Source: Thermoplasmata archaeon (GTDB lineage Archaea; Thermoplasmatota; E2; DHVEG-1). From it: a DNA stretch of 64,000 bases. The stretch covers positions 16,418 through 80,417 of the forward strand of contig JAHWGK010000002.1 in NCBI GenBank assembly GCA_020054495.1, written 5' to 3'. Below, in pieces: positions 4,500 to 51,437 of this stretch; the first letter of the stretch is position 1; each line of letters opens with the position of its first letter. A program made the position numbers and the translations under genes. A model generated the notes under the pieces. The model saw only the letters and a list, made by a program, of their open reading frames with translations, was not told where the DNA came from and did not search any database.

Positions 4500-4721
4500 A
4501 TTTCCATCACAATTTTATTATAAAACATGTATTATATAAATCTAGTAGATTAATTTTGTATCAAAATAATTTTAAAATACAAACTTTTGTAACAGTTAGT
4601 AATTATTATAACTATATTCCTCTAAAAAGTAAAAATCATAACAATTTGAAAAAATTGTCCAGTGAAATAATAGTTTTATAAATAGTTAGATGATATCAGA
4701 TTTGGTGAGAGGGAAGCAGTC

Positions 4722-5952: not shown

Positions 5953-6036
5953 TGAAAAAGGAAAACAAGGTTTTTTTATAATAAACTTACTTAGTTACAA
6001 ATTTAATAAAGGAAAATAAAAAAAGAGATGGAAAAC

Positions 6037-26378: not shown

Positions 26379-26714
26379 ATGAAACGTACTACTTGCGAGT
26401 ACATGATGTGGAGTGGGTTGCCCGTAATTAGAAAGGGAATTGCAGAGAGTATGATTAATGATTTTGGATTAAGTCAAAAAGAGGCAGCAGAACAGCTAGG
26501 ACTTACACCCGCTGCAGTATGTCTGTACGTATCAAATAAACGTGGAAAGATTGATATTTCAGATGAAACTGTCTTAAATGAAATAAAGATATCTGCAGGA
26601 AATATAATAGAAAATGAAAATAGCTCTATAATTTCAGAAACATGCAGAATTTGTAAACTTCTTAGATCCACCAGTAAATTTTCTTTATATTGTCCATCAT
26701 GTGATGAAAAGTAA
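26379..26714 (+). CDS. HTH transcriptional regulator with C-terminal CxxC...CxxC zinc ribbon (paralog of 51105..51437)
   Basis: 111 aa. HTH segment GLSQKEAAEQLGLTPAAVCLYVSNKRG. C-terminal CRICKL...CPSC. Confidence 0.5.
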   Translation: MKRTTCEYMMWSGLPVIRKGIAESMINDFGLSQKEAAEQLGLTPAAVCLYVSNKRGKIDISDETVLNEIKISAGNIIENENSSIISETCRICKLLRSTSKFSLYCPSCDEK

Positions 26715-28213: not shown

Positions 28214-28660
28214 ATGAGTGAATCTATTAGTATTCTCGGATCAATGATAAAAGATCATTGTAAAATTAAAAAGTTGATCAATGATTTAGAAGAAAAAACA
28301 AAGCAAGATTTTGATTCTATGAGTAAATCATTTAACAAATTTGAATGGGAACTTGAAAAACATGTTTTTGCAGAGGAAAAAGCAATATTTACTTCATATA
28401 ACCCTGAGGATGTTACTGAAGGATATAAAATGTTACCCGAACTTACAAAACAACATAACTTTATTATTAATACACTTAACAACTGGAGAGAAGACGTTCG
28501 TAAAAAAAGAATGATAAGTGAGGTATATAGTTTTAAAGAGTTTATAACTAGACATAAAGATTTTGAAGAAGAAAAAGTTTATCCAAAACTTGATGAAGTG
28601 TTATCTGAAGAAGAAAAAAGACACATTGTTGCAAAAATCAATGAAATTGTACATAAGTAG
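28214..28660 (+). CDS. hemerythrin-like (HHE cation-binding) domain protein
   Basis: 148 aa with repeated H-x3-EE motifs (HVFAEEKAIF, HKDFEEEKVYP). Confidence 0.6.
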   Translation: MSESISILGSMIKDHCKIKKLINDLEEKTKQDFDSMSKSFNKFEWELEKHVFAEEKAIFTSYNPEDVTEGYKMLPELTKQHNFIINTLNNWREDVRKKRMISEVYSFKEFITRHKDFEEEKVYPKLDEVLSEEEKRHIVAKINEIVHK

Positions 28661-28669
28661 AGGGAGATA

Positions 28670-28855
28670 ATGGAAGAAATCTATGAATGCAAAAACTGTG
28701 GTAAAACCGTAAAAGTAAAAGATGGAAAAGCTCCAGATTGTTGTGGTAAATCCATGAAAAAGATGTCGCTTGATATTTGCATTCAGCCAGCTCATGCAGA
28801 ACATGCAAGACCTATGGAAGATGAAGACGCATGTGATGATGGTCGTGCAGGATAA
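28670..28855 (+). CDS. desulforedoxin-like small metal-binding protein
   Basis: 61 aa. MEEIYECKNCGKTVKVKDGKAPDCCGKSMKKM matches the desulforedoxin CxxC...CC-G-x-x-M pattern. SD GAGGGAGA upstream. Confidence 0.5.
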   Translation: MEEIYECKNCGKTVKVKDGKAPDCCGKSMKKMSLDICIQPAHAEHARPMEDEDACDDGRAG

Positions 28856-28880
28856 AAAATTAAAGGAGGTAAGAAAAGAA

Positions 28881-29012
28881 ATGGAAGAAATTTATATTTG
28901 TTGTGTTTGTGGAGAAGAACACAAAGATGAAAACATACATCATATCGATGTAAAAGGTGAAACTAAGGATATATGTAAAGGATGTGCTACTTCCATAAAA
29001 GGACTTGCATAA
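28881..29012 (+). CDS. small zinc-ribbon/rubredoxin-like protein (43 aa)
   Basis: ATG at 28881 preceded by AAAGGAGGT SD. MEEIYICCVCGEEHKD...CKGCATS. Same MEEIY N-terminus as the preceding gene. Confidence 0.4.
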   Translation: MEEIYICCVCGEEHKDENIHHIDVKGETKDICKGCATSIKGLA

Positions 29013-29017
29013 AAGAA

Positions 29018-29524
29018 TTATTTCATAAATATTTCAAATCTGTCTTTTTTTACTTTACAAATTGGACAAATTTCTGGTGGTTCATCTCTTCCACAGAGAT
29101 ATCCGCATACTTTGCATCTCCAAACAGGTTTAGATAATGATGAAATATTAGTTTCACTTTGTTTTTTATCCATTTTTTCCCGTTCTTCCTTTAAAGGTCT
29201 TCTATCAGGAATTGACTCTAATTCTTTTTTTCCATTAATAACTTCTTTTGAAACATATAATGCACAATAACATGTTCCAAAATCATTCAAATCTGGATCG
29301 CGATAATCACAAGGACATATCATATCTAAATCCTCTTTTTTATTACCCGCTGCAAGTCTACAAGGACACACTTGATACCCATATCTTTTTTCATTTACAA
29401 TAAGGCCTTTAACAATACCTTTAGTAAATTCTAAATCAGAATTTATGTAATATCCTCCAGATTCTGCATCTTTTTTTAGCCTTTGGTATAATTTTTCAAC
29501 TTCATCATCGATTACATTACTCAT
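29018..29524 (-). CDS. ferredoxin:thioredoxin reductase catalytic-subunit-like protein fused to C-terminal rubredoxin domain
   Basis: 168 aa. CPC-x16-CPC-x12-CYC (FTR catalytic chain pattern). C-terminal WRCKVCGY...CPICKV rubredoxin fold. Confidence 0.7.
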
Positions 29525-29802
29525 AAGCCTAAAGCCTCTTTAATCTCATCCTCTTTGTAACCAACAATACATCCTTCATCGTTAATTACCAATGTTGGAA
29601 ATGAGCATCGAGGATTCCATTTTTTAATATCATCCATTACCTTGTCTTTTTCGCTTTCCTCAACTTGATCTACGAAAATATATGAATATTCTACATCCAA
29701 TTTTCTAAGGAAATCTTTGGTTTTTTTACACCATCCACAGGTGCTTAATGCATATAGTAAAATCTTTCCTCTATTTTCTCCCGCAACATGTTCAATTTTC
29801 AT
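29521..29802 (-). CDS. glutaredoxin-like small redox protein
   Basis: 93 aa. Active site CGWC ([16 protein letters not shown]). 4-nt overlap with the FTR-like gene. Confidence 0.75.
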
Positions 29803-29817
29803 CTTATATCACATCTT

Positions 29818-30372
29818 TCAAATATATCTATTTATATATACAAAATCATCTATAGGAATTCTTTCAGGTCTTTCTTTCTCGGCTTTTACCTGCTTCTCTG
29901 AAAGAACTGGGTCAATTTTATCTGAATGCTTACCCACAATTACAAGTGCAATAACATCAATATCCTCTGGAATATCAAGAATTTCTCTAGTTTTCTTTGG
30001 ACTATACCCTGCAATTGGATGAGCAACTAGCCCAAGCTCTGTTGCTCTTAGAATCATTGCTTCAGTAGCCATTCCAATATCAAATCGGTAGTAAATTCTA
30101 TCATGGATTACACAATCATCCTCTTGTTTTCCTATAACAACTATAATCATTGATGCCTTATAAGCCCAGACATTACCTGATGATAAAGCTTCATGCATTT
30201 TCTTAAGCATTTCTGGATCATAAACAAAAATATATCTCCAGGGTTGATTGTTAAAACAGGATGCTGTAATTTGAGTACATTCCGCTAAATCATTAATCAG
30301 ATCTTTTGTAATTTCAACAGGCTCCAAAGAGCGATAAGCTCTTCTTTTTCTAATTGTTTCCTTCACATCCAT
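29818..30372 (-). CDS. nitroreductase family protein
   Basis: Start moved to MDVKETIRKRRAYRSL (canonical nitroreductase N-terminus). The longer ORF would overlap the thioredoxin gene. Confidence 0.75.
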   Translation of the reverse strand: MDVKETIRKRRAYRSLEPVEITKDLINDLAECTQITASCFNNQPWRYIFVYDPEMLKKMHEALSSGNVWAYKASMIIVVIGKQEDDCVIHDRIYYRFDIGMATEAMILRATELGLVAHPIAGYSPKKTREILDIPEDIDVIALVIVGKHSDKIDPVLSEKQVKAEKERPERIPIDDFVYINRYI

Positions 30373-30382
30373 ACAAATGCGC

Positions 30383-30784
30383 CTAGGCATATCCCGTGAT
30401 ACCTGGGTCAACCCATGTTGTGTTTTTAGCACATTGAGGACCATGTTCAAGAGATTCCTCAACTGCTTTTTTCAATAACGATGGATACATTGCACCTGTC
30501 AGTTCATGAACAGGTTTGCCATTACAAAAAAACTTGAATGTTGGTGTACCCATAACTCCATATCTATTGGCAATAGTCAGATTTTCGGCAATATCAACCT
30601 TAGCAAAAATTATTTTTCCTTTATATTCCGATGCATATTCATTAAAATGCGGTTCCATTTGTTGACAAAAAGGACAAGTAGGGCTAGAAAACATTACTGC
30701 AACTGGTTTGTCTCCCTTTTCTACTGTTTTTTCCCAGTTGGAATCATCCAATTCAACAAGATTTTCAGAACTCATAATATTCAC
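30383..30784 (-). CDS. trx: thioredoxin
   Basis: 133 aa. CPFC active site in a Trx fold (VAVMFSSPTCPFCQQM). Confidence 0.8.
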   Translation of the reverse strand: MNIMSSENLVELDDSNWEKTVEKGDKPVAVMFSSPTCPFCQQMEPHFNEYASEYKGKIIFAKVDIAENLTIANRYGVMGTPTFKFFCNGKPVHELTGAMYPSLLKKAVEESLEHGPQCAKNTTWVDPGITGYA

Positions 30785-31255
30785 CTAATCCCCCTCTCTC
30801 AAAAATGTAAGAACTTCATTAATGTCAGGTAATTCTCCTAACTCATAAATTCTTACAAACTCAATTTCTTGATTTTCGTTTATAATAATATTAGCCCTAT
30901 CTGAAAAACCTTCTTCTTCTCTGAATAATCGGTATAGCTTTGCTACTTTTCCATGAGGCCAAAAATCAGAAAGAAATCTAGTATGCTTTATGCCAAGATT
31001 TTCAGCCCAGGCTTTTTTAGAAGGAATAGAATCAACGTTTATTCCAACTGCAACCATATTTAATTCTCCAAATTCCTTCCAATTATCTTCAAGTGATTGC
31101 ATCTGTTTAGCACACACACCAGTCCAAGCAAGGGGGTGGAATGATAGAAGAACCCATTTTCCTTTAAAATCAGATAACTTGAATTCCTTTTCATTCTGAT
31201 CATTCAAACTAAAATCAGGAGCTTTCTCTCCAGCTTCAAAACATTTTTTTTCCAT
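30785..31255 (-). CDS. peroxiredoxin-like (AhpC/TSA/redoxin family)
   Basis: 156 aa. WTGVC peroxidatic Cys context. Abuts the thioredoxin gene. Confidence 0.65.
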   Translation of the reverse strand: MEKKCFEAGEKAPDFSLNDQNEKEFKLSDFKGKWVLLSFHPLAWTGVCAKQMQSLEDNWKEFGELNMVAVGINVDSIPSKKAWAENLGIKHTRFLSDFWPHGKVAKLYRLFREEEGFSDRANIIINENQEIEFVRIYELGELPDINEVLTFLREGD

Positions 31256-31267
31256 ATTTAATGCCTC

Positions 31268-32119
31268 TTAAATCCATTCTTCCTTTAGAATATCTCCTTT
31301 AATTCCTACAACAATTGACTTAACCGGAATTTTTCTTGAAGCATTTTCAACAGCTTTTTTAGCAAGACCTAATAAACCACTGCAACATGGAACCTCCATA
31401 GTCATCACCGTAAGAGTATTGATATTTGCACCATCAATTAACTTAGTCAATTTATCTAAGTAAATTTCTTGATTAGAATCTAATTTTGGACATGCAATAG
31501 AAAGACTTCGACCTTTTAGATAATCTTTATGAAAATCGGCAATGGAATAACCAACACAATCAGCAACAAGTAAAACATCTTTATTCTTGAAATAGGGTGC
31601 ATTTGGGGGTACTAAATGAAGTTGAACTGGCCATTGCCTAAGTTGAGAACTCCGGGTTCCACTTTCTCCATTATCGCTTTTTTTTTCATCTGAAAAGTCT
31701 ATAACTCTTGAGCCAGGACATCCTTGAGGTGGATTAGTACACTTATCATCTGGTTTTTCATCAAGATCTATCTCCATTCCTTTTTCTTTTAAAACCTCTA
31801 AAGCGTCATTGTAATAACCTAATTCGCCATGATCTTTCAAATGCTTAAGATGTGCAATAATCGTGTTTTTACCAGCCTTTATGATATTTTCTCGCATTAC
31901 CTTTTTTTCATCATAAGGTTCCGCGTCTCGTTCCTCAGTACTCATTGCACCTTGTGGGCATTCGCCAACACATGCTCCTAGGCCATCGCAAAAAATATCA
32001 CTAATCAGTCTTGCTTTTCCATCAATTACTTGCAATGCTCCTTCAGGGCAATTTGGAATGCATAATCCACAGCCATTACACTTTTCTTCATCAATTTTAA
32101 TTATTTTTCTTTTTGCCAT
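31268..32119 (-). CDS. 4Fe-4S dicluster domain protein (HCP-associated)
   Basis: 283 aa. CNGCGLCIPNCP and CDGLGACVGECP ferredoxin motifs, plus extra Cys-containing C-domain. Confidence 0.65.
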   Translation of the reverse strand: MAKRKIIKIDEEKCNGCGLCIPNCPEGALQVIDGKARLISDIFCDGLGACVGECPQGAMSTEERDAEPYDEKKVMRENIIKAGKNTIIAHLKHLKDHGELGYYNDALEVLKEKGMEIDLDEKPDDKCTNPPQGCPGSRVIDFSDEKKSDNGESGTRSSQLRQWPVQLHLVPPNAPYFKNKDVLLVADCVGYSIADFHKDYLKGRSLSIACPKLDSNQEIYLDKLTKLIDGANINTLTVMTMEVPCCSGLLGLAKKAVENASRKIPVKSIVVGIKGDILKEEWI

Positions 32120-32129
32120 ACATATCTCC

Positions 32130-33752
32130 CTATGTAACTATTTGTAATACTGGAAGATCATTTTCGACTGTTGAATTTGGTCGTATGTTGAATTTCTCAA
32201 CCAAAACCTTTAACACATTTGGCGAGACAAATGCAGGTAGAGTTGGACCAAGCATAATATTTTTCACACCAAGTGATAAAAGTGTAAGTAATACCAAAAC
32301 TGCTTTTTGTTCATACCAGGCTATATTAAATGAAATCGGCAATTCATTAATACCAACTCCAAATGCTTCTGCAAGTTTTTGTGCTATGGCCACAAGAGAG
32401 TACGAATCATTGCACTGTCCGGCATCAATCACTCTAGGAATACCATCAATATCTCCAAGACCAAGTTTGTTATATCGATATTTAGCACACCCTGCAGTAA
32501 GGATCACTGTATCGTTTGATAGTGCCTTAGCAAAATCAGTATAATATTGTCGATTTTTTCTTCGGCCATCACATCCAGCCATAACTACAAACCGTTTTAT
32601 TTTACCTGATTTCACTGCCTCAACAATTTTATCTGCAAGATTTAATGTTGCTTTGTGGGCAAAACCTATAATTATCTCACCCTCCTCAATTTTTTCCGGA
32701 GGTGAACTCTTTTTTGCATGTTCAATGACCTCAGAGAAATCCTTAGAACCTCCCTCAATTCTATCAGGAATGTATTTCAAACCATCAAAACCGACAACAC
32801 CTGTCATATAAACTCTATCTTTATACGAATCTCTTGGAGGAACCAAACAATTTGTTGTCAGAAGAATAGGTCCATTGAATTTTTCAAACTCTTCTTTTTG
32901 TCTCCACCACGAACTACCATAGTTACCCACAAAATGAGAATATTTTTTAAACGCAGGATAAGCATTTGCAGGAAGCATCTCTCCATGAGTATAAACATCA
33001 ATACCAGTTCCTTCAGTTTGTTTAAGCAGTTCCTCTAAGTCCTTTAAGTCATGACCGCTGATAAGAATGCCTGGATTGCTACGCACTCCAATGTTTACTT
33101 TTGTTATTTCTGGATTGCCATATGCAGAAGTATTTGCATTATCAAGCATTGCCATAGTTTTTACACCCATCTCGCCACATCTCATTACAAGATTTATCAA
33201 TTCATCTATGGGCAATTCTTGTGTAGTGCTAACTAATGCCTCTTCAATAAACTTAAAAATTTCATTGTCTTTTTTTCCAAGTACATAAGCATGATCAGTG
33301 TATGCAGCCATTCCTTTTAATCCATAAGTTAGCAGCCAACGAAGTGACCTAATATCTTCATTTTCTGTGCTTAACACACCGATTGTTTCTGCTTTTTTTA
33401 AGATATCTTCCTCGTCATCATATTGCCAGGTTACAGCATCATGTTGAGAGTCAACTGAGACGTTTTCCTTTATTTTCTCTCGTAATTCTATTGCTTCTTG
33501 AATTTTATCAAAAAAATGGTTTTTATTAAAATTAGCATTTGTAATTGTTGAGAACAAACCAGCCATGATAAATTCATCTGCTTCTTTAGTATTCTTTCCT
33601 TGTTTTCTTGCTTCGATGTTGCAAATAGATATCCCTTTCATTAGATATATTAAAAGATCCTGTAAATTTGCTACATCACCTTGTTTACCGCAAGCACCAG
33701 CATTTGTACAACCTTTATTATTTATTGTTTCTTCGCATTGATAACAAAACAT
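32130..33752 (-). CDS. hcp: hybrid cluster protein / hydroxylamine reductase
   Basis: Start set at MFCYQCEET (canonical HCP N-terminal Cys cluster). The longer ORF overlaps the AhpD gene. Confidence 0.9.
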
Positions 33753-33756
33753 TTCT

Positions 33757-34086
33757 TCACCTCGAAAACTCATCAAGAGCTTTTTTGACTTCAACGATAT
33801 AAATCATAGCTGGGCCACCACCCATGAGTATCGCTACGCCAGCAACCTCTAAGATTTCTTCTTTGGTGGCACCTACTTTAAGGGCTTTTTCTACATGAAT
33901 AGCAATACAATATTTACACCGAGCAGTTATTGCCGTTCCAACTGCAACAAGTTCTTTTGTTTTAGTATCTAGAACTCCTTCTTTGAGAACTGAGCCCATA
34001 AATGCTTTAAAATGCCTCAAAGTTTCCGGTTGTTGTTTTGATAATTCACCCATCATTTCCATTACGCTATCCACGGATTTTTTCAT
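33757..34086 (-). CDS. carboxymuconolactone decarboxylase family / AhpD-like alkylhydroperoxidase
   Basis: 109 aa. CxxCxxxH motif (RCKYCIAIH). Confidence 0.8.
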
Positions 34087-34116
34087 TTAATTCAAATTTA
34101 TCACCTATTTCAAAAT

Positions 34117-34497
34117 TCAACTGGACTTCCACAGCCCATGTACATTACAGTACTCTCTAGCATCTATTGCATCTGCTTTTATTTCAAACTCAGCCTGTGG
34201 TTTGTCACCAGGTTTTAGAAACTTTCTATAAGCAGCACCATCAGCAATTATTTGTATCCATTCAATGTGGTGTTCTTCGATCATTGGGTGATCTTGGTTT
34301 TGACCAACCTTGACAAGAACTCCATTAGAAGTCTTTTCAATATAAGGGACATGTTTTTCAACAGTAGAATCCTCAGTTTTTTCTTCCATAAGTTTCATAG
34401 GTTCTCCACAACATACGAGTTCCCCAACACCAGCATGTAAAACTTCAACAATATTTCCACAAATATTACATTTGTAGATTTCTCTAATTTTTACCAT
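34117..34497 (-). CDS. dfx: desulfoferrodoxin (2Fe superoxide reductase)
   Basis: N-terminal desulforedoxin module ([12 protein letters not shown]...CCGEPM). SOR domain with HVPYIE...H and CNVHGLW. Start at ATG 34497, with GGAGG 8 nt upstream. Confidence 0.85.
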
Positions 34498-34516
34498 AAT
34501 TTCTACCTCCAAAATT

Positions 34517-34900
34517 TCATTTTTTCTTTTTTTTATAGTCTTTTATAGCCTCATGTAATGCATCAGCAGCTAAATTGGAGCAATGCATCTTTTGAGGAGG
34601 AAGGCCATCAAGTTCGTCAGCCACATCATTACGAGTTATTTTAATTGCATCATCAACATGTTGTCCTTTAGCTAGTTCAGTAACCATACTACTTGTAGCA
34701 ATTGCAGACCCACATCCAAAGGTTTTGAACTTGATATCAGTAATAATGTCGTCTTTTACCTTGATGTATATCTCCATTAAATCCCCACAGACTGGGTTTC
34801 CAACTTTTCCATATCCATCTGGGTTCTCTATCACCCCTACATTTTTTGGATTCATAAAATGCTCCATTACTTTCTCACTATATCCTGGAATTTTTATCAC
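34517..34900 (-). CDS. iscU: IscU/NifU-type Fe-S cluster scaffold
   Basis: 127 aa. Three conserved Cys ([15 protein letters not shown]). Confidence 0.85.
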
Positions 34901-34906
34901 CTCTTA

Positions 34907-36061
34907 TTATGTCAACGGTGAAAGTTGTCTCAGTCTTTGAACTGTTTCTTTCACCCCTTTTACAATAACTGGTACTTGTTCTCTTTTATTTGAACGGCCG
35001 AGGGTCATTACCATCGATCCATGAGCCTCTTCATGTTTCAAGCCTATTGCAAGTAGAACATGAGATGGCTCTAATGTTTTATGGGAACAAGCTGAACCAG
35101 TTGCTATTTGAATATTATACATATCCATATTCAACAATATGCTTTCACCTTCTATATAGCTAAAACGAAAACTGGCATGATGCGGAAGTCTCTTTGTAGG
35201 ATGACCTGTTAAATAGGTGTCTTCGATCTTCAATATCTCCTTGATAAGCTCATCTCTAATTTTTTTGAGTCTCTCACTTTCATTTTTCATTTCTTTTTGG
35301 GCAATTCTAGCTGCTTCCCCCATTCCAACTATCGCAAATACATTTTCAGATCCAGACCTTAAACCTCGTTCCTGCCCACCGCCGAGAAGAACTGATTGAA
35401 CCTTAACACCTGGTTTTATATAAAGTGCAGCAGCTCCTCTTGGACCATAAAGGTCATTGGATGATAAAGTCAAAAGATCAATTCCATCCTCCTGCACATC
35501 AATAGGTAAACGCCCTGCAGCAGCTGTTGCATCAACATGCAAATATCGCCCTTTTTCATGAACAATTTTACTAACCTCCTTAATTGGTTCAATTGTACCA
35601 ATCTCATTATTTGCATACATAAGAGAGGTAACTGTCGTGTTTTTTGTTAAAAGGCTTTCAAGTATTTCAAGATTAATGATACCATATGGGTCAACTGGAG
35701 CTACATTAAATGTAAAACCATTTTTCTGAAGTTCTTTCATAGGATTAATAACTGAGATATGATCTATGGCACTAGCAAGAACTTCTTTTCCATCTCTTAT
35801 ATTCCTAAGTGCTGTTCCTCTTAAAGCAAGATTGTTAGATTCAGTCGCACTCCCTGTAAAAATAATTGATTTTTCATTCTCTGCATTGATAAACTCTGCA
35901 ATTTTTTTCCTAGACTCTTCAATAGCGTTTTTTATCTCTAAACCAATTGAATAAAGAGAGGAGGGATTTGCATAATCCTTTATTAGATAAGATTTTGCAA
36001 ATTCAAATACCCGTGGATCAACAGGCATTGATGATGCATGGTCTAAATAAATTCTTTCCAT
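34907..36061 (-). CDS. iscS: cysteine desulfurase (IscS/NifS, class V aminotransferase)
   Basis: Start at MERIYLDHAS with GAGGAAA SD. PLP-Lys region (SSNDLYGPRG) and active-site Cys (SACSHK). Confidence 0.9.
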   Translation of the reverse strand: MERIYLDHASSMPVDPRVFEFAKSYLIKDYANPSSLYSIGLEIKNAIEESRKKIAEFINAENEKSIIFTGSATESNNLALRGTALRNIRDGKEVLASAIDHISVINPMKELQKNGFTFNVAPVDPYGIINLEILESLLTKNTTVTSLMYANNEIGTIEPIKEVSKIVHEKGRYLHVDATAAAGRLPIDVQEDGIDLLTLSSNDLYGPRGAAALYIKPGVKVQSVLLGGGQERGLRSGSENVFAIVGMGEAARIAQKEMKNESERLKKIRDELIKEILKIEDTYLTGHPTKRLPHHASFRFSYIEGESILLNMDMYNIQIATGSACSHKTLEPSHVLLAIGLKHEEAHGSMVMTLGRSNKREQVPVIVKGVKETVQRLRQLSPLT

Positions 36062-36071
36062 ATTTTCCTCT

Positions 36072-36434
36072 TTAAAACCACATAGTTGCACCCGCGTCAA
36101 GAGCGAGATCATTTAAGGTTCCTGCACCAACTATTTTTACCCCAGGTATTAGATTAATTTTTTCCAAGCCAAGCATTTGCTTTGATGCTTCACACACATA
36201 AATCTCAATTCCCATGTCAAGGGTTTTTTTAATCATCTCGGCAACACTAGGGAAATTACCAAGTTTGATTTTTTCAGCTTCGCCAGCCATTAATATTTTC
36301 AGACCAGTGCCAAGATAATAAATCATTGGTTTAATGTCCATCATCTTAGCTGTTTGTGCTAAAACCAAAGGCGAATATTGTTTTTTAGGCGCATCAGTTG
36401 TTTGCACATATAATATAGAATTTTCGTCTTTCAT
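36072..36434 (-). CDS. DsrE/DsrF-like sulfur-relay family protein
   Basis: 120 aa, DsrE/YchN fold pattern (conserved Cys in VCEASKQ). Confidence 0.65.
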   Translation of the reverse strand: MKDENSILYVQTTDAPKKQYSPLVLAQTAKMMDIKPMIYYLGTGLKILMAGEAEKIKLGNFPSVAEMIKKTLDMGIEIYVCEASKQMLGLEKINLIPGVKIVGAGTLNDLALDAGATMWF

Positions 36435-36445
36435 TAAATTTCACC

Positions 36446-36697
36446 TCATTTCATTCTTTTAATATAGAAGGTCAAGATTGTACCTTCTTTTTCAAATTTT
36501 AATATTTCGTGACCTGTTCTTTTAGCCCACCGTTTAATATCCTCTTCAGCGGCAGGATCATCAGCTTCGACTTTTAATACTTGCCCAACTTCAATTTTAT
36601 CAATTTCTTCCTTTGTCATTGCAATGGGCATAGGGCAATAGTATCCAATACAGTCCAATTCAGCATCAGCAACAATGTCTGAACTCAGATTATACAC
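36446..36697 (-). CDS. tusA: TusA-like sulfurtransferase
   Basis: 83 aa with CPxP motif (CIGYYCPMP). Confidence 0.8.
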   Translation of the reverse strand: MYNLSSDIVADAELDCIGYYCPMPIAMTKEEIDKIEVGQVLKVEADDPAAEEDIKRWAKRTGHEILKFEKEGTILTFYIKRMK

Positions 36698-36703
36698 CTC
36701 TCA

Positions 36704-37213
36704 TTAATTCCCCAAATAATCTAATTCAAACCAGTAACCAGTACTATTTATGTGGTGGAATTCTCCCTCAAGAACGTTATAGTGGTTCTTTTCTTGGTTA
36801 ATGATTTCATCAATGATTTCATTAATCTGATCGTCTTTAGAATTTTCTCTTATTTTTGTATAATATTCAATAGCGTCTTTTTCACTATCCATTGCCATTC
36901 GTAAGGCATCAATTTCATTTGTATCGGGGTTTGCTCCTTCCACTGTCTGTAGATCTTTTGGGAATATTGGAATATCAGCATATTTTTTACTAGTATTTGT
37001 AAGATCATACCATTCCGTTTTTCCAATTTTTTCGTCAAATATTTTTTGAAAAATTTCAAGATGCAAAAGTTCATCAGCAGCTAGGCTTTTAAAGACAGAT
37101 TTGCCCATTTCACTTGAGGTCTGAGCCGCTGCTTTTTGATAAAAGGAATAGCCGGCTTTTTCCATTTGAATAGCAGTTTTAATTGCATCTTTCACATTTT
37201 CAATTTCTGTCAT
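36704..37213 (-). CDS. rubrerythrin-family ferritin-like diiron protein (no rubredoxin domain)
   Basis: 169 aa with ExxH pairs (ELLHLEIF, QEKNHYNVLE). Confidence 0.6.
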   Translation of the reverse strand: MTEIENVKDAIKTAIQMEKAGYSFYQKAAAQTSSEMGKSVFKSLAADELLHLEIFQKIFDEKIGKTEWYDLTNTSKKYADIPIFPKDLQTVEGANPDTNEIDALRMAMDSEKDAIEYYTKIRENSKDDQINEIIDEIINQEKNHYNVLEGEFHHINSTGYWFELDYLGN

Positions 37214-37232
37214 TTATCTTCACCATTTTTTT

Positions 37233-37808
37233 TTAGTAATTCTCCATCCAAATTTCGCAATAACTTTGTTTATGTTGACATGCAGGGCATACATCAGGGG
37301 CTTCTTCTCCTTCGTAAACATATCCACAGTTCCGGCATTTCCATTTGATAACTTTGTCTTTTTTGAAAGCTCGATTTTTATTTACATTATCAAGTAGTTT
37401 TCTAAATCTTCTTTCATGATAAGCTTCTACTTTACCTATCTCCCTAAAACTATGAGCAACCATAGGAAATCCTTCATCCTCCGCAGCCTTTGCAAAATCT
37501 GGATAAAGCGTTCCCCATTCCATTTTTTCACCTTCTGCTGCAGCATGTAAGTTTTCAGCAGTCGTTCCTATTACACCTGCGGGGTATCCTGCAATAATTT
37601 CAACATCTCCGCCTTGAAGGTGTTTGAAAAAGACTTCAGCATGCTCCTTTTCATTGTCAGCTGTTTCTTGAAATATTGCTGCAATCTGTTCATATCCTTC
37701 TTTTTTGGCTTTTGAAACAAAAAATGTATATCTGTTTCTAGCCTGTGATTCTCCAGCAAATGCTGCAAGAAGATTTTTTTCAGTTTTTGTTCCTTTGATG
37801 CTTTTCAT
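37233..37808 (-). CDS. rbr: rubrerythrin
   Basis: 191 aa. Ferritin-like diiron domain plus C-terminal rubredoxin CRNCGY...CPACQH. Confidence 0.9.
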   Translation of the reverse strand: MKSIKGTKTEKNLLAAFAGESQARNRYTFFVSKAKKEGYEQIAAIFQETADNEKEHAEVFFKHLQGGDVEIIAGYPAGVIGTTAENLHAAAEGEKMEWGTLYPDFAKAAEDEGFPMVAHSFREIGKVEAYHERRFRKLLDNVNKNRAFKKDKVIKWKCRNCGYVYEGEEAPDVCPACQHKQSYCEIWMENY

Positions 37809-37832
37809 TTTTTTTCCTCCAATTCAATCAAA

Positions 37833-38324
37833 TTAAGGACCCACATGAACCATGGGCCAATACACATCACCTTCTTCAAAACGTTCCATACTTTCTTTTT
37901 CCATTTTAAGAATTTTATAATGGCCAATTTCCATATCTGAAAAATACAACAGAGTATTATGTATCTTATTTCCAGTCTCAAATCGAGTTGCTAGAGATTT
38001 GTAAAATTCACTTGCGGATTGTTCTGCATTCATTGCTTGAGTTAATAATTTACTTAAAGGGGTGTCTTCAGTAAACTCTACTTCAGGTAGTGGAACTGGC
38101 GTTTTCTTAGGCAAAACTAACTCGTTTTCAGGAAAATGATTTGCATAAATTTCCTCAATAAATTTTCTATGCTTATTTTCTTCCTTAGCAAGAAATTCCA
38201 GTTTATCCTTTAATAATCCATTTTTTGTTTTTGTCGCCATTTTTAAATAAAGCTGGTGGCTATCTTCCTCACTCTTTATTGCAGCGAGAAATAAATCTTC
38301 TAGATCATAACTACTTAAATCCAT
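37833..38324 (-). CDS. rubrerythrin-like ferritin-domain protein
   Basis: 163 aa ferritin-like four-helix-bundle pattern (EENKHRKF, EIGHYKIL). Confidence 0.55.
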   Translation of the reverse strand: MDLSSYDLEDLFLAAIKSEEDSHQLYLKMATKTKNGLLKDKLEFLAKEENKHRKFIEEIYANHFPENELVLPKKTPVPLPEVEFTEDTPLSKLLTQAMNAEQSASEFYKSLATRFETGNKIHNTLLYFSDMEIGHYKILKMEKESMERFEEGDVYWPMVHVGP

Positions 38325-38357
38325 TTTATTTCACCTAAATATAGTTATTTTTTCTCC

Positions 38358-38894
38358 TTATTTTATATTCTCAGCATGCAAATCAAGGTGATCAGTTTCT
38401 ATCTCAACTAATTCAGCAAAAAATTCTTTTAACCTTGGTTCTGTTGCCTCATCTCTAAATTTTGCATATGCTTTTATTGCACGATCCTCTCGTTCCCAGC
38501 CTTCTTTTGAATTTTCTTTTGCATTTGCATTACATAATTGTTTCCCTAGTTCAGGCCTAGAGATTTTTAAGAATTTAGAGATAACAGAAGCATGTTCACG
38601 TTCGACTTTCATTAAAGCTTTGAACTTTGCTAAACTGTAATGGTCACTTGCTTTATCTGCAGCATTTTTTGCACAATCATAAAACGCAGCATTATCTAAC
38701 TCAAGTTGCAAGGCAGCCTCAAGATTCTTGCGTGATATATCGCTTAACAATACGTTGAATTCATCTAGATTCCAATCCTTTGCTTCAACGAAAAATCTTT
38801 TTTGCGCACCGCAAAATGGACATTGAGTTGGTGCTTCAGATCCAATGTATGGATCACCACATATTCTACATCTAAATACCTTTATCTTAGCCAT
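38358..38894 (-). CDS. reverse rubrerythrin (N-terminal rubredoxin + C-terminal diiron domain)
   Basis: 178 aa. N-terminal FRCRICGDPY...CPFCGA, followed by ferritin-like domain (EREHASV, IETDHLDLH). Confidence 0.8.
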   Translation of the reverse strand: MAKIKVFRCRICGDPYIGSEAPTQCPFCGAQKRFFVEAKDWNLDEFNVLLSDISRKNLEAALQLELDNAAFYDCAKNAADKASDHYSLAKFKALMKVEREHASVISKFLKISRPELGKQLCNANAKENSKEGWEREDRAIKAYAKFRDEATEPRLKEFFAELVEIETDHLDLHAENIK

Positions 38895-38920
38895 TCAACT
38901 TCCACCATCACAAATTTATT

Positions 38921-39076
38921 CTATTTTATTCGTTTCATTGGCACGCCACAACAATAGGGTGCTGCCTTTGGTTCTTCATCAAATTCTATAATGCTACAAC
39001 TACAATCCTCTGCTGAACATTCGCATTCATATTGTATTGGCTTGTCTGCTTCTTTACAACCACAACTTTTACACAT
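38921..39076 (-). CDS. Cys-rich small protein (51 aa, 11 Cys; desulforedoxin-like CCGVPM motif)
   Basis: Manual translation MCKSCGCKEADKPIQYECECSAEDCSCSIIEFDEEPKAAPYCCGVPMKRIK. GGGAGG SD 9 nt upstream of the ATG. Not in the ORF track. Confidence 0.4.
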   Translation of the reverse strand: MCKSCGCKEADKPIQYECECSAEDCSCSIIEFDEEPKAAPYCCGVPMKRIK

Positions 39077-39109
39077 TTTTCCATACCTCCCTTATATTTA
39101 ACATATTTC

Positions 39110-40171
39110 TCATTTCTTTTTAATTTTTACTAACCTTTTTCCAATTTCTTTAGCTTTTTTTAACTCATTTTGATCGGGAACATAGTTAATATTAATGCTA
39201 TCTAAAGGAAAATCCCAAGATACTTCCTTTAGAATTTTTTCTATTTCACTAACCGCCTGGCCGCCCCAACCATAGGATCCAAAAACTAAACCTATTCGAT
39301 TTTTAGGTTTAAGACCTTTGAGATATGTTAGGAAACCACCCATTGACGGAAGCATTGAATTATTAAACGTAGGAGATCCTATCAGTATATATTTCGAAGT
39401 AATTACATCTGTTATTACATCTGAAATATGGGATGTTTTTAGATCCCTAATAGCAACTGGAATACCTGCTTCTTCGATACCTTCTCGAAGTGAATAAGCT
39501 ATTTTTTCTGTTGAACCCCACATAGAATCGTAAACAATCAATGCTTTATTTTCAGTTTCATATCGGGCCCATTTCGTATATTCTTTGAGGATTTGTGGAA
39601 TCAATGAACGCCATATTATTCCATGGCTTGGTGCAATCATATCGATGTCAAGTCCAGAAATAGCTTCAAGAGCCTTTTCTACTTGACGACCATAAGGCAT
39701 TACGATATTTGCATAATACTTCGCCGCCTCCTCCTTCAAAATCCCCCATTCAATTTCATCATCAAAGCGCCCTGAACTTGCTATATGTTGTCCAAAAGCA
39801 TCATTTGGAAGAAGAAGTTTATCACTGGGAATGTATGTTACCATGGAATCTGGCCAATGAACCATTGGTATTTCAACAAAATGAAGTGTTCTTTTACCTA
39901 TATTGAGTGTATCACCAGATTTTACTACTTTAAAGTTCAAGTCTTTTTTGTAGTGTCTTTTAAGTCCTTTTTCTCCTCTTGTTGAAGTTATAACTGTTGC
40001 ATTTGGACAGAATTCAAGAATTTTTAGTATAGAACCAGAGTGATCCATTTCAACATGGTTTGATATAATATAATCTATCTTTGAAGGATCTGCGATTTCT
40101 TTAATTCTAGTAAGCATTTCATCAAAAAGATAGTGTTTTACTGTATCTACTAATGTTATTTTTTTATCCAT
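39110..40171 (-). CDS. fprA: flavodiiron protein (FprA-type; MBL-like diiron domain + flavodoxin domain)
   Basis: NHVEMDHSG diiron motif, flavodoxin domain (IVYDSMWGSTEKIA). The conserved FDP N-terminus continues in frame upstream to 40288 without ATG/GTG/TTG (see findings). Confidence 0.8.
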   Translation of the reverse strand: MDKKITLVDTVKHYLFDEMLTRIKEIADPSKIDYIISNHVEMDHSGSILKILEFCPNATVITSTRGEKGLKRHYKKDLNFKVVKSGDTLNIGKRTLHFVEIPMVHWPDSMVTYIPSDKLLLPNDAFGQHIASSGRFDDEIEWGILKEEAAKYYANIVMPYGRQVEKALEAISGLDIDMIAPSHGIIWRSLIPQILKEYTKWARYETENKALIVYDSMWGSTEKIAYSLREGIEEAGIPVAIRDLKTSHISDVITDVITSKYILIGSPTFNNSMLPSMGGFLTYLKGLKPKNRIGLVFGSYGWGGQAVSEIEKILKEVSWDFPLDSININYVPDQNELKKAKEIGKRLVKIKKK

Positions 40172-40293
40172 AATTAGGTAAGCATTATACGTTGTACCAC
40201 GGTTTGTTGAGTATCCATGGAAATTACGAATATTCCAGTCAATACCACCGACCCAATAAATATCCTGCTTTATGTCAACCTTATTCAGCTAAA

Positions 40294-40989
40294 TCACTCC
40301 TTTTCAAAATCTTCTTTTCTAGCTCCACAGACCGGACAAACCCAGTCCTCAGGAACATCTTCAAATTTTGTCCCAGGTGCTACTCCATTATCTGGGTCTC
40401 CTTTTTCAGGCTCATATACATAACCACACACTTTGCAAACATATTTGTCCATTTTCTTTTCCTCCTTTTTTCTTGCTCTATCTACTTCGCCACTATAAGT
40501 TGGGGCTGTTTTTGGTGAATATCCTCCTTTTACTTTATGATAAAACTCATAAGTCATTGGTTTTTCTTCAGAAAGTACTTCTGCATCCTCTACATTACCA
40601 ATAAAAATCGTATGTGTGCCAACATCGATTTTATCTATTAATTTCGTTTCTAAGCATGCAAGAGCATAATCTAAAACAAGTGGTACTTTGCTGTTCCCTA
40701 GCTTAAATTCAACGTCCTTAAATTTATCAATATCTCTTCCAGATTTAAACCCAAAATTTCCAATGAAAGTTAATGGTGCTTTTTCTGAAAGAATTGACAC
40801 TGTGAAGCATTTACTTTTTTCTATGTATTCATGTGTTAAATTCTGTTTATTAATACTAACTGCAATTGTCGGTGGTTCAGATGTAATTTGAAATAAAGCA
40901 TTTGCAATCTGCCCATTTATTTTTTCACCTTCTTTTGAACAGACGATGTATAAACCATATGATATTTTATGTAATGTTTTAGGATCCAT
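40294..40989 (-). CDS. hrb: high-molecular-weight rubredoxin (flavin reductase domain + C-terminal rubredoxin), Hrb-like
   Basis: 231 aa. Flavin reductase-like split-barrel N-domain. C-terminal CKVCGY...CPVCGA. Classic partner of FprA. Confidence 0.8.
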
Positions 40990-41413
40990 CCTTGATTTTC
41001 TCCTTGTTCATACATTTTTTACAGATGCCCTTGAAGTATCCGTGCACCTCCTCAACATTATGTCCACATTCCAACATTTTACCTAAATTAGGGCATACAA
41101 CATCTATATCAATAATCCTCCCACATTTTTTACAGAGAAAATGATGATGCATTTCATGTCTAAAATCATATCTATGCTCTAAACCAGATATTGTAATAGA
41201 CTGGATTATACCATGTTTTTCTAGAATTTCTAATGAATTATATACAGTAGTTTTTGATAAAGAAGGATTATTTATTTTTAAATCTTGATATATTTTATCT
41301 GTGGCGGGATGGGTGGAATGTTCATTTAAATATTTTAATATAATTAATCTTTGCGGTGTAACTTTTAGATTCTTTTCTCTTAACATTTTCACATATTTTT
41401 CCAAATAATCCAC
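40979..41413 (-). CDS. Fur family transcriptional regulator (PerR-like)
   Basis: 144 aa. Fur DNA-binding helix ([13 protein letters not shown]), metal sites HEMHHHF, CKKCG...C..C. GTG start. Confidence 0.85.
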
Positions 41414-41421
41414 CTACAATG

Positions 41422-41451
41422 TGTAATAATTACTAATTTGTAATAATTACA
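41422..41451. promoter_or_regulatory. tandem 13-bp palindromes TGTAATAATTACt / TGTAATAATTACA, candidate Fur/PerR operator
   Basis: A perfect A/T-rich palindrome and a near-copy 17 nt apart. They lie 9-40 nt upstream of the Fur-family gene start, between it and a TATA-like TATATATTTAAAG. Confidence 0.35.
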
Positions 41452-41520
41452 ATTTGACATGGAATGCAAATTATATATTTAAAGCTTTCTACCAGCAGTA
41501 TATTAAATCTTAAAAAAAAT

Positions 41521-41730
41521 TTAGCAGGAACTGTGCTCAATAGCTTCATTTGGACATGAACTAACACATGCACAACATTCAATACATTCCCCAAGGTTTT
41601 TACAAACTGCTTTTCCATCCTCAAGTTCAAATATTTCCACTGGACAAGCAGTTACACAGTCTCCAGCACCTGTACATTTCTCATAATCTATAATTATCTT
41701 TATGTCTCCTTCCTTAAATTCTTTTTTCAT
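41521..41730 (-). CDS. 2x[4Fe-4S] ferredoxin
   Basis: 69 aa. CTGAGDCVTACP and CIECCACVSSCP. Confidence 0.8.
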   Translation of the reverse strand: MKKEFKEGDIKIIIDYEKCTGAGDCVTACPVEIFELEDGKAVCKNLGECIECCACVSSCPNEAIEHSSC

Positions 41731-41871
41731 ATATTACTAACCACCCACTAAAGCGAAATATTGTAATTAAATAGGACTATTTTAGTATTTCTTTTAATAA
41801 TTATTATTATCTTTTTTCGAAGCTTTTTTGAATAAACAGGCGTTTCATAAAAAGTTAGGGGATTTTATAAG

Positions 41872-51104: not shown

Positions 51105-51437
51105 TTGAATATGAAAACACCGTGTGAGATAATTGTGTGGAATATTGTACCTGTAATCAAGAAGGAAATAGCAAAGAGTTTAATTAACGAATTTAGATTT
51201 AATCAAAAGATAACGGCAGAAAAATTAGGTACTACTGAAGCAGCAGTTTCTAGATATATATCTGGAAAAAGAGGTGCATTGGAGATTACTGATAAGGATA
51301 TTTTGAATGAAATTAGTAAATCTGCTAGAAGAATAGCTAATAAAAATAGTTCTGTTTTAATAATGGAAATCTGTAGAATTTGTCGACTTTTCAGGAGTAA
51401 AGAAATTATTGATGGAATTGATTATGAATGTGATTAA
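51105..51437 (+). CDS. HTH transcriptional regulator with C-terminal CxxC zinc ribbon (paralog of 26379..26714)
   Basis: 110 aa. GTTEAAVSRYISGKRG HTH. CRICRLF...C. Same architecture as 26379..26714. Confidence 0.5.
   Translation: MNMKTPCEIIVWNIVPVIKKEIAKSLINEFRFNQKITAEKLGTTEAAVSRYISGKRGALEITDKDILNEISKSARRIANKNSSVLIMEICRICRLFRSKEIIDGIDYECD

Follow-up and report, generated by a model that had tools for sequence, protein, structure and literature searches.

In clostridia (Clostridioides difficile, Clostridium acetobutylicum), PerR regulons include reverse rubrerythrin, FprA and Hrb-like partners. Moorella thermoacetica reportedly carries a five-gene cluster (rubrerythrin, FprA, Hrb; rubredoxin oxidoreductase, rubredoxin), ascribed to Das and co-workers in 2001, and its Hrb-FprA pair is said to be an NADH:NO/O2 reductase, as Silaghi-Dumitrescu and co-workers found in 2003. 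Methanogens are said to possess fusions of the catalytic subunit of ferredoxin:thioredoxin reductase (FTRc) with rubredoxin, such as FDR of Methanosarcina acetivorans, reportedly treated by Kumar and co-workers in 2015 and Balsera and co-workers in 2013. The small MsvR-fpaA-rdxA-rdxB operon of Methanothermobacter has MsvR, an ArsR-type and Cys-based sensor that is divergently transcribed. In C. difficile, the rbr1-perR-rbo(-CD0828) operon is autoregulated by PerR (PMC8546684). SisPerR of Saccharolobus islandicus responds to H2O2 and regulates metal homeostasis, not antioxidant enzymes, and PerR homologues are scarce in euryarchaeal lineages other than some methanogens (PMC11724291). The locus described here is located at 28214-41730 of a 64-kb stretch of DNA, referred to as the window (64,000 nt of contig JAHWGK010000002.1, assembly GCA_020054495.1, Thermoplasmata archaeon). 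It comprises 25 genes, 21 of which form an array that begins with a perR-like gene.

The locus is read as a chromosomal locus for oxidant defence and repair in archaea of Marine Benthic Group D (abbreviated MBG-D), in which one 12.4-kb array of 21 genes would be expressed from a single promoter with a transcription factor B recognition element (BRE) and a TATA box, repressed by PerR and inherited vertically. The probability of this reading is put at about 70%. Judged by its sequence, the locus is an archaeal form of the PerR antioxidant operon and unusually large. Among open-access papers, none that describes it in MBG-D/Thermoprofundales was found.

By its organisation, the C. difficile rbr1-perR-rbo operon is the closest characterised analogue. 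Clostridial PerR operons likewise contain a PerR-type repressor gene inside its own operon, encode rubrerythrin and desulfoferrodoxin, and have a 7-1-7 AT-rich palindrome at the promoter. They comprise four genes or are part of a dispersed regulon, whereas the array in the window has 21 genes, belongs to an archaeal host and has a BRE/TATA promoter with sites downstream of TATA, where TTGTAATnATTACAA occurs in three phased copies. It also adds Fe-S assembly, Hcp and a ferredoxin-type branch of thiol reduction. The Moorella cluster shares the position of Hrb directly upstream of FprA and the presence of rubrerythrin and superoxide reductase in the locus, but is bacterial, consists of five genes in two divergent operons, and contains no regulator and no Fe-S or thiol modules. 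SisPerR is also an archaeal Fur-family PerR; the regulator in the window, in contrast, is encoded at the head of an antioxidant array in Thermoplasmatota, and its close relatives number in the hundreds. The MsvR locus resembles the present one in being archaeal, in its response to oxidants (predicted for the window) and in encoding a flavodiiron protein and rubredoxins beside a redox-sensing repressor with promoter-overlapping sites, whereas the sensor in the window is of the Fur family and is encoded by the first gene of a 21-gene array. The FTRc-rubredoxin protein (FTRc-Rd) shares with M. acetivorans FDR the FTR catalytic fold with CPC motifs, the rubredoxin-like domain and a neighbouring Grx/Trx-like partner. 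It differs in its third motif, CYC instead of the plant-type CHC, and in the terminal position of its gene in a PerR array.

The perR array, its promoter and its regulator

Intergenic distances divide the locus into three units, namely the 21-gene minus-strand array, a separate ferredoxin (Fd) gene and the convergent genes Hr-pepA-pepB on the plus strand. The array extends from 41413 to 29018 (12,396 bp), with perR as the first and FTRc-Rd as the last gene. All junctions range from -11 to +33 nt, most of them with a GGAGG/GGTG Shine-Dalgarno motif, and the array spacers contain no T-run of six or more. From 29018 to 41730, the minus strand has a single intergenic T-run that long, a T8 (41512..41519), which is a likely archaeal terminator directly after the stop codon of Fd (41521..41730). 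Since it is followed by a gap of 107 nt to perR, Fd probably forms its own transcript. Fd adjoins perR in six related loci as well (L101, L106, L114, L139, L140, L165). At the other end, Hr-pepA-pepB converges on the array with 5 nt between the facing stop codons. No intergenic TATA consensus was found in the cluster besides the one upstream of perR. A TATA-like motif, TATATATA, is located within the nitroreductase gene near its 3' end (29833-29840, minus strand), 38 nt upstream of Grx, and could act as an internal promoter for Grx and FTRc-Rd.

The first-pass annotation had proposed about 27 genes in a few very long operons with spacings of 0-25 nt, flanked by a Fur/PerR-type regulator. The spacing, the absence of T-runs from the spacers and the PerR-like first gene support very long operon(s) with their own Fur-family metalloregulator. 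The gene count has to be lowered to 25 according to the open reading frame (ORF) lists for 26-44 kb. The close packing holds, although over the wider range given above and with the 107-nt Fd/perR gap as an interruption, and the regulator is of the type proposed but is part of the array instead of flanking it.

The 107-nt region upstream of perR contains, in this order, the BRE/TATA element AGAAAGC-TTTAAATA (41476..41490, minus strand) and three tandem operator sites (41420..41470, minus strand), which are placed after the TATA box and before the perR start and overlie the expected start of transcription. The sites are 7-1-7 palindromes of the TTGTAATnATTACAA type, phased at 17 nt. After the degenerate site 0 (41454-41470), GTAATTATTAC occurs in two exact copies at a spacing of 17 nt; a near-perfect palindrome, TTGTAATTATTACAA, forms site 1 (41437-41453), and site 2 is located at 41420-41436. 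The two GTAATTATTAC copies are the only ones in the window, and a position weight matrix gives 41437-41453 a score of 21.9 bits, where shuffled sequences reach at most 19.8, with nothing comparable elsewhere in the window. If the centre of the TATA box is placed about 26 nt upstream of the start, the start falls within site 1, and site 0 takes up the stretch from TATA to the start. Sites between TATA and start represent the usual geometry of archaeal repressors.

The promoter layout is conserved, being shared by more than 20 metagenome contigs whose PerR proteins have diverged (57-89% identity). In over 20 related loci, the motif GAAAA[GC]-T[TA]TAAATA stands equally far from the operator, and the arrangement GAAAA[GC]-TTTAAATA-N5-TTTGTAATACATAC-TAAATTGTAATnATTACAAATTAGnAATTATTACA is kept in more than 20 loci with PerR identities of 57-69% and GC contents of 0.29-0.47, while the sequence further upstream of BRE/TATA is unrelated among them. 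A repressor gene in first position together with three phased palindromes over the start, kept in diverged lineages, points to negative autoregulation. Across 1.84 Mb of fetched loci, strong operator sites are almost confined to perR promoters, one exception being the Fd promoter of L139. In the window, no site above background was detected at the Fd or Hr promoters (best Fd-promoter site, 8.6 bits) or inside the array. The palindromic operator that had been expected is thus present at the main promoter, and the copies anticipated at internal promoters are missing from the window.

Two further elements were observed in the window. A one-mismatch operator core, GTAATTATTAT (12.9 bits, within the chance range), is located at 4596-4612, about 100 nt upstream of a gene for an uncharacterised 216-aa protein (3849-4499, minus strand) that has a 216-aa paralogue at 15991-16641 (plus strand). 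The divergent intergenic region of Acs and Fd contains the element TTCAAAAAAGCTTCGAAAAA(A/G) at 41811-41832, which is kept in L139 and L140. It bears no relation to the PerR operator, and a different regulator of Fd or Acs may bind there.

The perR gene (40979..41413, minus strand) has a GTG start and encodes a Fur-family protein of 144 aa (Pfam FUR, PF01475, 92 bits; cut-off 23). Its best matches among PDB entries are PerR of Streptococcus pyogenes (5e-23, 85 bits) and Bacillus subtilis (3e-22, 82 bits), ahead of Fur (at most 68 bits) and Zur (33 bits). Similarly, the best NCBIfam model is PerR with 108 bits, followed by Fur (75) and Zur (37). The regulatory site of the B. subtilis protein (Bsu) is taken to consist of H37, D85, H91, H93 and D104, presumably as in the structures 2fe3 and 3f8n. 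In an alignment of 26 archaeal family members with a B. subtilis PerR fragment, the equivalents of the histidines (H35, H89, H91) are present in all 26 members and those of the aspartates (D83, D102) in 24. The structural Zn(Cys)4 site (C94/C97 and C131/C134, corresponding to Bsu C96/C99/C136/C139) is complete in 26 of 26, and the equivalent of Bsu N61 is invariant. Hundreds of close homologues exist in the lineage under the generic annotation "Fe2+ or Zn2+ uptake regulation protein". Metal ligands, the Cys4 site and the best-matching structures mark the regulator of the array as PerR-like.

Conservation and origin of the locus

The glycyl-tRNA synthetase (GlyRS) encoded in the window is 82% and 78% identical to those of Thermoplasmatales archaeon SG8-52-4 and SG8-52-2, and its other named matches are Thermoplasmata metagenome-assembled genomes (MAGs). 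These matches place the host lineage, as far as one marker can indicate, in MBG-D/Thermoprofundales (Thermoplasmatota). To collect related loci, metagenomes were scanned with the DsrE-like protein and the genes of the cluster were mapped by tblastn. The array is conserved, and its genes are collinear in all loci examined. The White Oak River SMTZ contig L085 contains all 21 genes in order (64-93% amino acid identity), followed by pepA, Hr, GNAT and LPGsynC as in the window. L139, L140, L083, L090 and L165 show the same order with blockwise differences. Both flanks (thiolase/Acs and GNAT/LPGsynC) are kept in L139 (225 kb), which lacks AhpD-Hcp-FeS283-Prx. L140 (194 kb) keeps thiolase and GNAT and lacks FprA, two rubrerythrin genes and AhpD through Trx. 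In L165, AhpD is missing and the upstream flank is rearranged, and in L005 IscU is directly followed by Grx. A group with higher GC content shares the mini-core PerR-Hrb-(Cys51)-Rbr-Rbr-TusA-DsrE-IscS-IscU-Dfx. The perR gene is present in 17 of the 22 loci with enough upstream sequence. Since the same order recurs in dozens of independent contigs, the clustering is not due to chance, and the homologues are not dispersed in relatives, which the first-pass annotation had named as a sign of incidental clustering.

Some loci show gene replacements and additions at the same array positions. In L006 (5870-7670), a 213-aa Prx, a ferritin and a PAS-like protein replace Cys51 and reverse rubrerythrin. 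In L085, TusA and DsrE are separated by an additional hemerythrin (5710-6132), and L116 shows the order Dfx-FeS283-Hr-Prx; gene swapping is seen in L116 and L126. Hr-like proteins thus recur as members of such arrays. In the JGI contig L166 (16722-18692), Dfx and Hcp are called as one 656-aa protein, which may be either a genuine fusion or an artefact of a frameshift or of assembly; they are separate genes in the sister contig L165.

The composition of the cluster matches that of its surroundings, where GC is about 33-35%. GC is 0.346 both in the cluster and outside, and GC at third codon positions (GC3) is 0.221 versus 0.235 (p = 0.41). The distance in relative synonymous codon usage (RSCU) to the other 43 genes of the window is 0.0237, compared with a null of 0.0258 +/- 0.0037. 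No tRNAs or Rfam families were detected in the window, the flanking ORFs are metabolic genes with no integrase or transposase among them, and flanking direct repeats occur at chance level only. A flank is held in L139 (both), L140 (thiolase and GNAT), L085 (GNAT/LPGsynC side), and L106 and L101 (Acs/GlyRS side). The cluster is present in all five, and no empty site between the flanks was seen in a search that was not exhaustive.

The locus had been suspected to be a mobile or adaptively assembled module that might deviate in GC or codon usage. No deviation from the other 43 genes was found, and a mobile island was rejected given the shared flanks, the native GC, GC3 and codon usage and the lack of tRNA, integrase and flanking repeats. 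Adaptive assembly is borne out in part, by the blockwise presence and absence of genes in relatives and by an inner cassette common to phyla and domains. From these comparisons, the locus is an ancestral chromosomal one with modular gain and loss.

Gene content and the TusA-DsrE-IscS-IscU cassette

All candidate proteins were scanned against Pfam and NCBIfam, and catalytic and ligand motifs were then checked protein by protein. Almost every named gene call was upheld by family matches, and the motifs are intact in all family-assigned proteins. This applies to the identities listed in the first-pass annotation, from the hemerythrin-like protein to ferredoxin, including the FTRc::rubredoxin fusion and the four rubrerythrin-family genes, one of them reverse. 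The gene content likewise supports its description of a consolidated set of defences against O2 and against reactive species of oxygen and nitrogen. In the following, all array genes are on the minus strand.

Hrb (40294..40989), a 231-aa fusion of flavin reductase and rubredoxin (Pfam Flavin_Reduct 115 bits, Rubredoxin 87 bits), overlaps perR by 11 nt. The flavodiiron protein FprA (39110..40288, 392 aa; Pfam ODP/Lactamase_B and Flavodoxin) combines a diiron domain with an HxExDH (HVEMDH) motif and a flavodoxin domain, with the Hrb gene 5 nt away, as in class A flavodiiron proteins. Cys51 (38921..39076) precedes the four rubrerythrin-family genes. These encode a reverse rubrerythrin (38358..38894; Pfam RUBY_RBDX at residues 7-35, Rubrerythrin at 56-172; CxxC..CxxC, two ExxH), a 163-aa diiron protein without rubredoxin domain (37833..38324; Pfam Rubrerythrin 65 bits), a classical rubrerythrin of 191 aa whose C-terminal domain is rubredoxin-like (37233..37808; Pfam Rubrerythrin 110 bits and RUBY_RBDX) and a second diiron protein without rubredoxin domain (36704..37213, 169 aa; Pfam Rubrerythrin 55 bits).

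Downstream of the cassette discussed below, desulfoferrodoxin (Dfx; 34117..34497; Pfam Desulfoferrod_N 71 bits, Desulfoferrodox 76 bits; CxxC..CC) has the features of a 2Fe superoxide reductase, a desulforedoxin-like N-terminal Fe(Cys)4 domain and a centre II with EKHVP and CxxH. It is followed by an AhpD/CMD-family protein with CxxC (33757..34086; Pfam CMD 82 bits), the hybrid cluster protein Hcp (32130..33752; Pfam Prismane 600 bits; N-terminal CxxCx8Cx5C) and FeS283 (31268..32119), a 283-aa protein with a ferredoxin domain and a Cys-rich C-terminal domain. Fer4 matches of FeS283 are confined to residues 4-62, its homologue in L165 carries a PF27217:AF_0155 match, and a search of solved structures aimed at the C-terminal domain matched the ferredoxin domain only. 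The distal genes encode a 156-aa AhpC/TSA peroxiredoxin (Prx; 30785..31255; Pfam AhpC-TSA 115 bits; PxxWTxxC), a thioredoxin (Trx; 30383..30775; Pfam Thioredoxin 86 bits; CPFC), a nitroreductase-family flavoprotein (29818..30372; Pfam Nitroreductase 58 bits), a glutaredoxin-like protein (Grx; 29521..29802; Pfam Glutaredoxin 47 bits; CGWC) and, with a 4-nt overlap, FTRc-Rd (29018..29524; Pfam FeThRed_B 83 bits, RUBY_RBDX 54 bits). The cluster and disulfide motifs of FTRc-Rd are CPC, CPC and CYC, the last where the family pattern has CHC. The separate Fd is a 69-aa ferredoxin of the 2x[4Fe-4S] type (Pfam Fer4 families). On the plus strand, the convergent unit starts with the hemerythrin-like diiron protein Hr (28214..28660; Pfam Hemerythrin 49 bits), which has the same position in L085 and L139.

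The start of FprA is non-canonical. An ORF list with ATG, GTG and TTG starts truncates the protein to 353 aa, while the reading frame of the conserved N-terminus runs on to a CTG, 5 nt beyond the TGA that ends Hrb; this TGA is itself located inside the Shine-Dalgarno motif GGAGTGA (40286-40296, minus strand). The CTG is kept in eight independent relatives (L085, L083, L101, L139, L098, L106, L121, L133); others use TTG (one locus) or ATG (four metagenome loci and L006). The in-frame N-terminus and the CTG in eight relatives rule out a truncated pseudogene or an error. From this conservation, the CTG is a conserved non-canonical start, which probably serves termination-reinitiation coupling with Hrb.

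Three small Cys-rich proteins are encoded in the locus. Cys51, previously counted as an 11-Cys peptide, has 9 Cys in 51 aa and the motif MCKxCGC-x10-CxC-x4-CxC-...EFDxEPKxxPYCCGxPMKRIK. Its desulforedoxin-like C-terminal CCGxPM resembles a motif in pepA and in the N-terminal domain of Dfx. The family is uncharacterised, with no match in Pfam and NCBIfam and about 30 homologues in a word-indexed search, all hypothetical. Motif and position are kept in 21 loci, and the gene is always found between Hrb/FprA and the rubrerythrins. The two peptides starting with MEEIY fared differently. The 61-aa desulforedoxin-like pepA (28670..28855, plus strand) belongs to a conserved family of 60-70-aa proteins (117 representatives at 50% clustering, E<=1e-3, exhaustive search), although its Pfam Desulfoferrod_N match of 19.6 bits is below the cut-off and no Pfam family scores above threshold. 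Invariant are C7, C10, C24 and C25 (CxxC..CC) as well as C37, E44, R47, C55 and D56; the second motif, towards the C-terminus, is C..P..AEHAR....PCDDGRxG. The 43-aa CxxC..CxxC zinc-ribbon-like ORF pepB (28881..29012, plus strand) has a strong Shine-Dalgarno motif and no Pfam or NCBIfam match. Related C-terminal domains occur in L125 and L160 in a different context. Since pepB is absent from the syntenic L085 and L139, it is the least secure gene of the locus.

Outside the locus, two paralogues of about 110 aa (26379-26714 and 51105-51437, both plus strand) have a weak helix-turn-helix match and conserved Cys pairs, among them a C-terminal CRIC(K/R)L(L/F)RS present in both. One of them is encoded 1.5 kb away from the Hr side of the cluster. 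Both are candidates for small regulators that use Cys to respond to redox state or metals.

Between the rubrerythrin genes and Dfx, the array encodes a sulfur carrier TusA (36446..36697; Pfam TusA 90 bits; CPMP), a DsrE-like sulfurtransferase (36072..36434; Pfam DsrE 51 bits; one conserved Cys in VCEAS), a cysteine desulfurase of the NifS/IscS type (34907..36061; Pfam Aminotran_5 247 bits; TGSAC active-site loop; alternative upstream ATG at 36112) and an IscU-type scaffold (34517..34900; Pfam NifU_N 173 bits; C38, C63, C107; LPPQK). In the NCBIfam comparison, the desulfurase scores 421 bits with NifS and 367 bits with IscS, both below their cut-offs. In the metagenome loci, TusA adjoins DsrE in 62 of 68 testable cases, IscS is adjacent in 42 of 45, and 33 of 35 contain IscU.

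GTDB species genomes were scanned with IscS. Among the matches listed, to which these figures refer and beyond which nearer GTDB genomes may exist, at least ten loci have an IscS with 66-76% identity, after which identity drops to 51% or less. All ten of those loci contain TusA-DsrE-IscS-IscU in the same order, and most of them are located among Dfx, Prx, Rbr, FprA, Hrb, Fur or Hcp genes. They are labelled Bathyarchaeia, WOR-3, Methanocellales, Thermoplasmatota and Deltaproteobacteria. In the deltaproteobacterial MAG chromosome CP070704.1 (closed, 2.5 Mb; L004, 9327-17484), IscS is 73-74% and IscU 89% identical to the window. There, the cassette is found between the division and cell wall (dcw) genes MurC-MurB-FtsA-FtsZ and SufC/SufB(SmsB)-like genes. 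Its location next to dcw genes on a closed chromosome indicates a truly bacterial host, and the SufC/SufB neighbours tie the cassette to Fe-S biogenesis as a feature common to both domains.

No description of a TusA-DsrE-IscS-IscU cassette was found among open-access papers. One source (PMC13066941) describes the minimal iron-sulfur (MIS) system, MisS/MisU of Garcia et al. 2022, as the pairing, in a non-diazotroph, of a NifS-like desulfurase with an IscU-like scaffold, without accessory components and as the least studied Fe-S machinery. Correspondingly, the window has a NifS/IscS-like class I desulfurase (MisS-like) with no nif genes nearby and an adjacent single-domain IscU-type scaffold (MisU-like) with three Cys, in an anaerobic archaeon and without chaperones or an A-type carrier. 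It differs from MIS in the TusA and the DsrE-like protein that precede IscS-IscU, and in the usual location among reactive-oxygen defence genes. Because of these two accompanying proteins, the cassette is, by gene content, an accessorised and horizontally shared MIS variant and not the plain two-gene system.

Proposed mechanism, alternatives and significance

We infer repression by PerR, induction by peroxide, a single transcript and the electron routes from the sequence. Under anoxia, metallated PerR dimers would occupy the three 17-nt-phased TTGTAATnATTACAA sites from TATA to the start and block initiation. Peroxide would oxidise histidines of the Fe site, PerR would leave the DNA, and the array, perR included, would be transcribed. 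Hrb would then pass NAD(P)H electrons to FprA for the reduction of O2 or NO, the four rubrerythrin-family proteins would reduce H2O2, and desulfoferrodoxin would reduce superoxide. Hcp together with FeS283 may handle NO or hydroxylamine. Thiols would be kept in the reduced state by Prx, AhpD, Trx and the Grx-like protein, which the FTRc-rubredoxin fusion would recharge, while TusA-DsrE-IscS-IscU would mobilise sulfur to rebuild oxidised Fe-S clusters. Within the lineage the locus is passed on vertically, with blocks of genes gained and lost in its distal half and some cassettes exchanged with other anaerobes. A bolder version, which is put forward tentatively and seems possible at best, sees a bacterial-style PerR on an archaeal promoter switch one 21-gene transcript. 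The cassette would here be a horizontally exchanged, oxidant-inducible Fe-S/sulfur relay, the counterpart in strict anaerobes of stress-induced SUF and an accessorised MIS, with Cys51 and pepA as new Fe(Cys)4-type redox carriers or metallochaperones that feed it.

Several observations weigh against the PerR-repressed single array. The only characterised archaeal PerR, that of Saccharolobus, governs metal homeostasis and not antioxidant enzymes, and the NCBIfam PerR score of 108 bits is below the equivalog cut-off of 180. The operator agrees with what we take to be the B. subtilis boxes at 12 of 14 positions for PerR, 12 of 14 for Zur and 10 of 14 for Fur, so that the box alone does not name the sensor; because it fits PerR and Zur equally, the assignment relies on the protein and its genomic context. 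The transcription of all 21 genes on a single transcript is deduced from sequence features, and the intragenic TATA-like motif in the nitroreductase gene and the blockwise variation among relatives leave room for internal promoters. Fd and Hr-pepA-pepB lack the operator, and hence not all of the "supercluster" need be co-regulated. Finally, tight repression under anoxia would be awkward if IscS-IscU were the only cysteine-dependent Fe-S system of the cell.

The variation in blocks, seen in L139, L140 and L005, would also fit several independent units, with PerR in control of only perR-Hrb-FprA, and perhaps the rubrerythrins, and with the Fe-S cassette and the thiol/Hcp block under their own, possibly constitutive, promoters. 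Fe-S assembly is normally a constitutive need, and TATATATA, 38 nt upstream of Grx, is a candidate for one such promoter. All 20 spacers, however, are 33 nt or shorter and leave too little room for a separate BRE/TATA and leader; they contain no T-run and no other intergenic TATA consensus, and gene order is collinear in every locus examined. This division is regarded as unlikely, though worth keeping in mind. A constitutive housekeeping redox/Fe-S locus, whose sites set a basal level or serve another factor without induction by oxidants, is judged quite improbable. It draws on the presence of IscS-IscU inside the array and on C. difficile 630 delta-erm, in which expression of an operon of this kind is constitutive and Rbr ranks with the most abundant proteins (PMC8546684). 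The cause in that strain is a PerR point mutation, however, and the repressor gene in first position with three phased palindromes over the start argues for negative autoregulation.

The regulator could instead be a Fur-, Zur- or Mur-like metal sensor that tunes the array, whose products are nearly all Fe or Fe-S proteins, to iron or zinc supply. The operator is as near the B. subtilis Zur box as the PerR box. The generic uptake-regulator annotation, the scores below the PerR equivalog cut-offs and the role of Saccharolobus PerR in metal homeostasis fit such a sensor. PerR structures and models nevertheless score well above those for Fur and Zur (PDB 85 versus at most 68 and 33 bits; NCBIfam 108 versus 75 and 37), and the equivalents of the PerR-specific Asp (Bsu D104) and of Asn61 are kept. 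The operon contains no metal transporter, and a Fur that represses iron-rich enzymes when iron is plentiful would make little physiological sense. A metal sensor is therefore considered improbable. Very much less probable, and largely refuted, is a recently acquired mobile genomic island. The IscS identities of 66-76% in Bathyarchaeia, WOR-3, Methanocellales and a true bacterium, among the matches listed, and the bacterial origin suspected for non-crenarchaeal PerRs (PMC11724291) are compatible with transfer, but the flanks are the same in L139 and L140 (thiolase, GNAT) and in L085 (GNAT/LPGsynC side). GC, GC3 and codon usage are as in neighbouring genes, no tRNA, integrase/transposase or flanking direct repeats are present, and the lineage holds hundreds of close PerR homologues.

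In marine and estuarine sediments, MBG-D/Thermoprofundales rank with the most abundant archaea, and to our knowledge none of them has been cultivated. A self-regulated 21-gene array suggests how MBG-D survive pulses of oxygen or peroxide at redox interfaces, and names genes that can be followed in metatranscriptomes. As its operator set is exceptionally well footprinted, the locus is a clean test case for a bacterial-type PerR on an archaeal BRE/TATA promoter. The cassette bears on the question which accessory factors and conditions MIS needs. Biochemical work finds concrete starting points in the Cys51 and pepA families and in FprA with its conserved CTG start.

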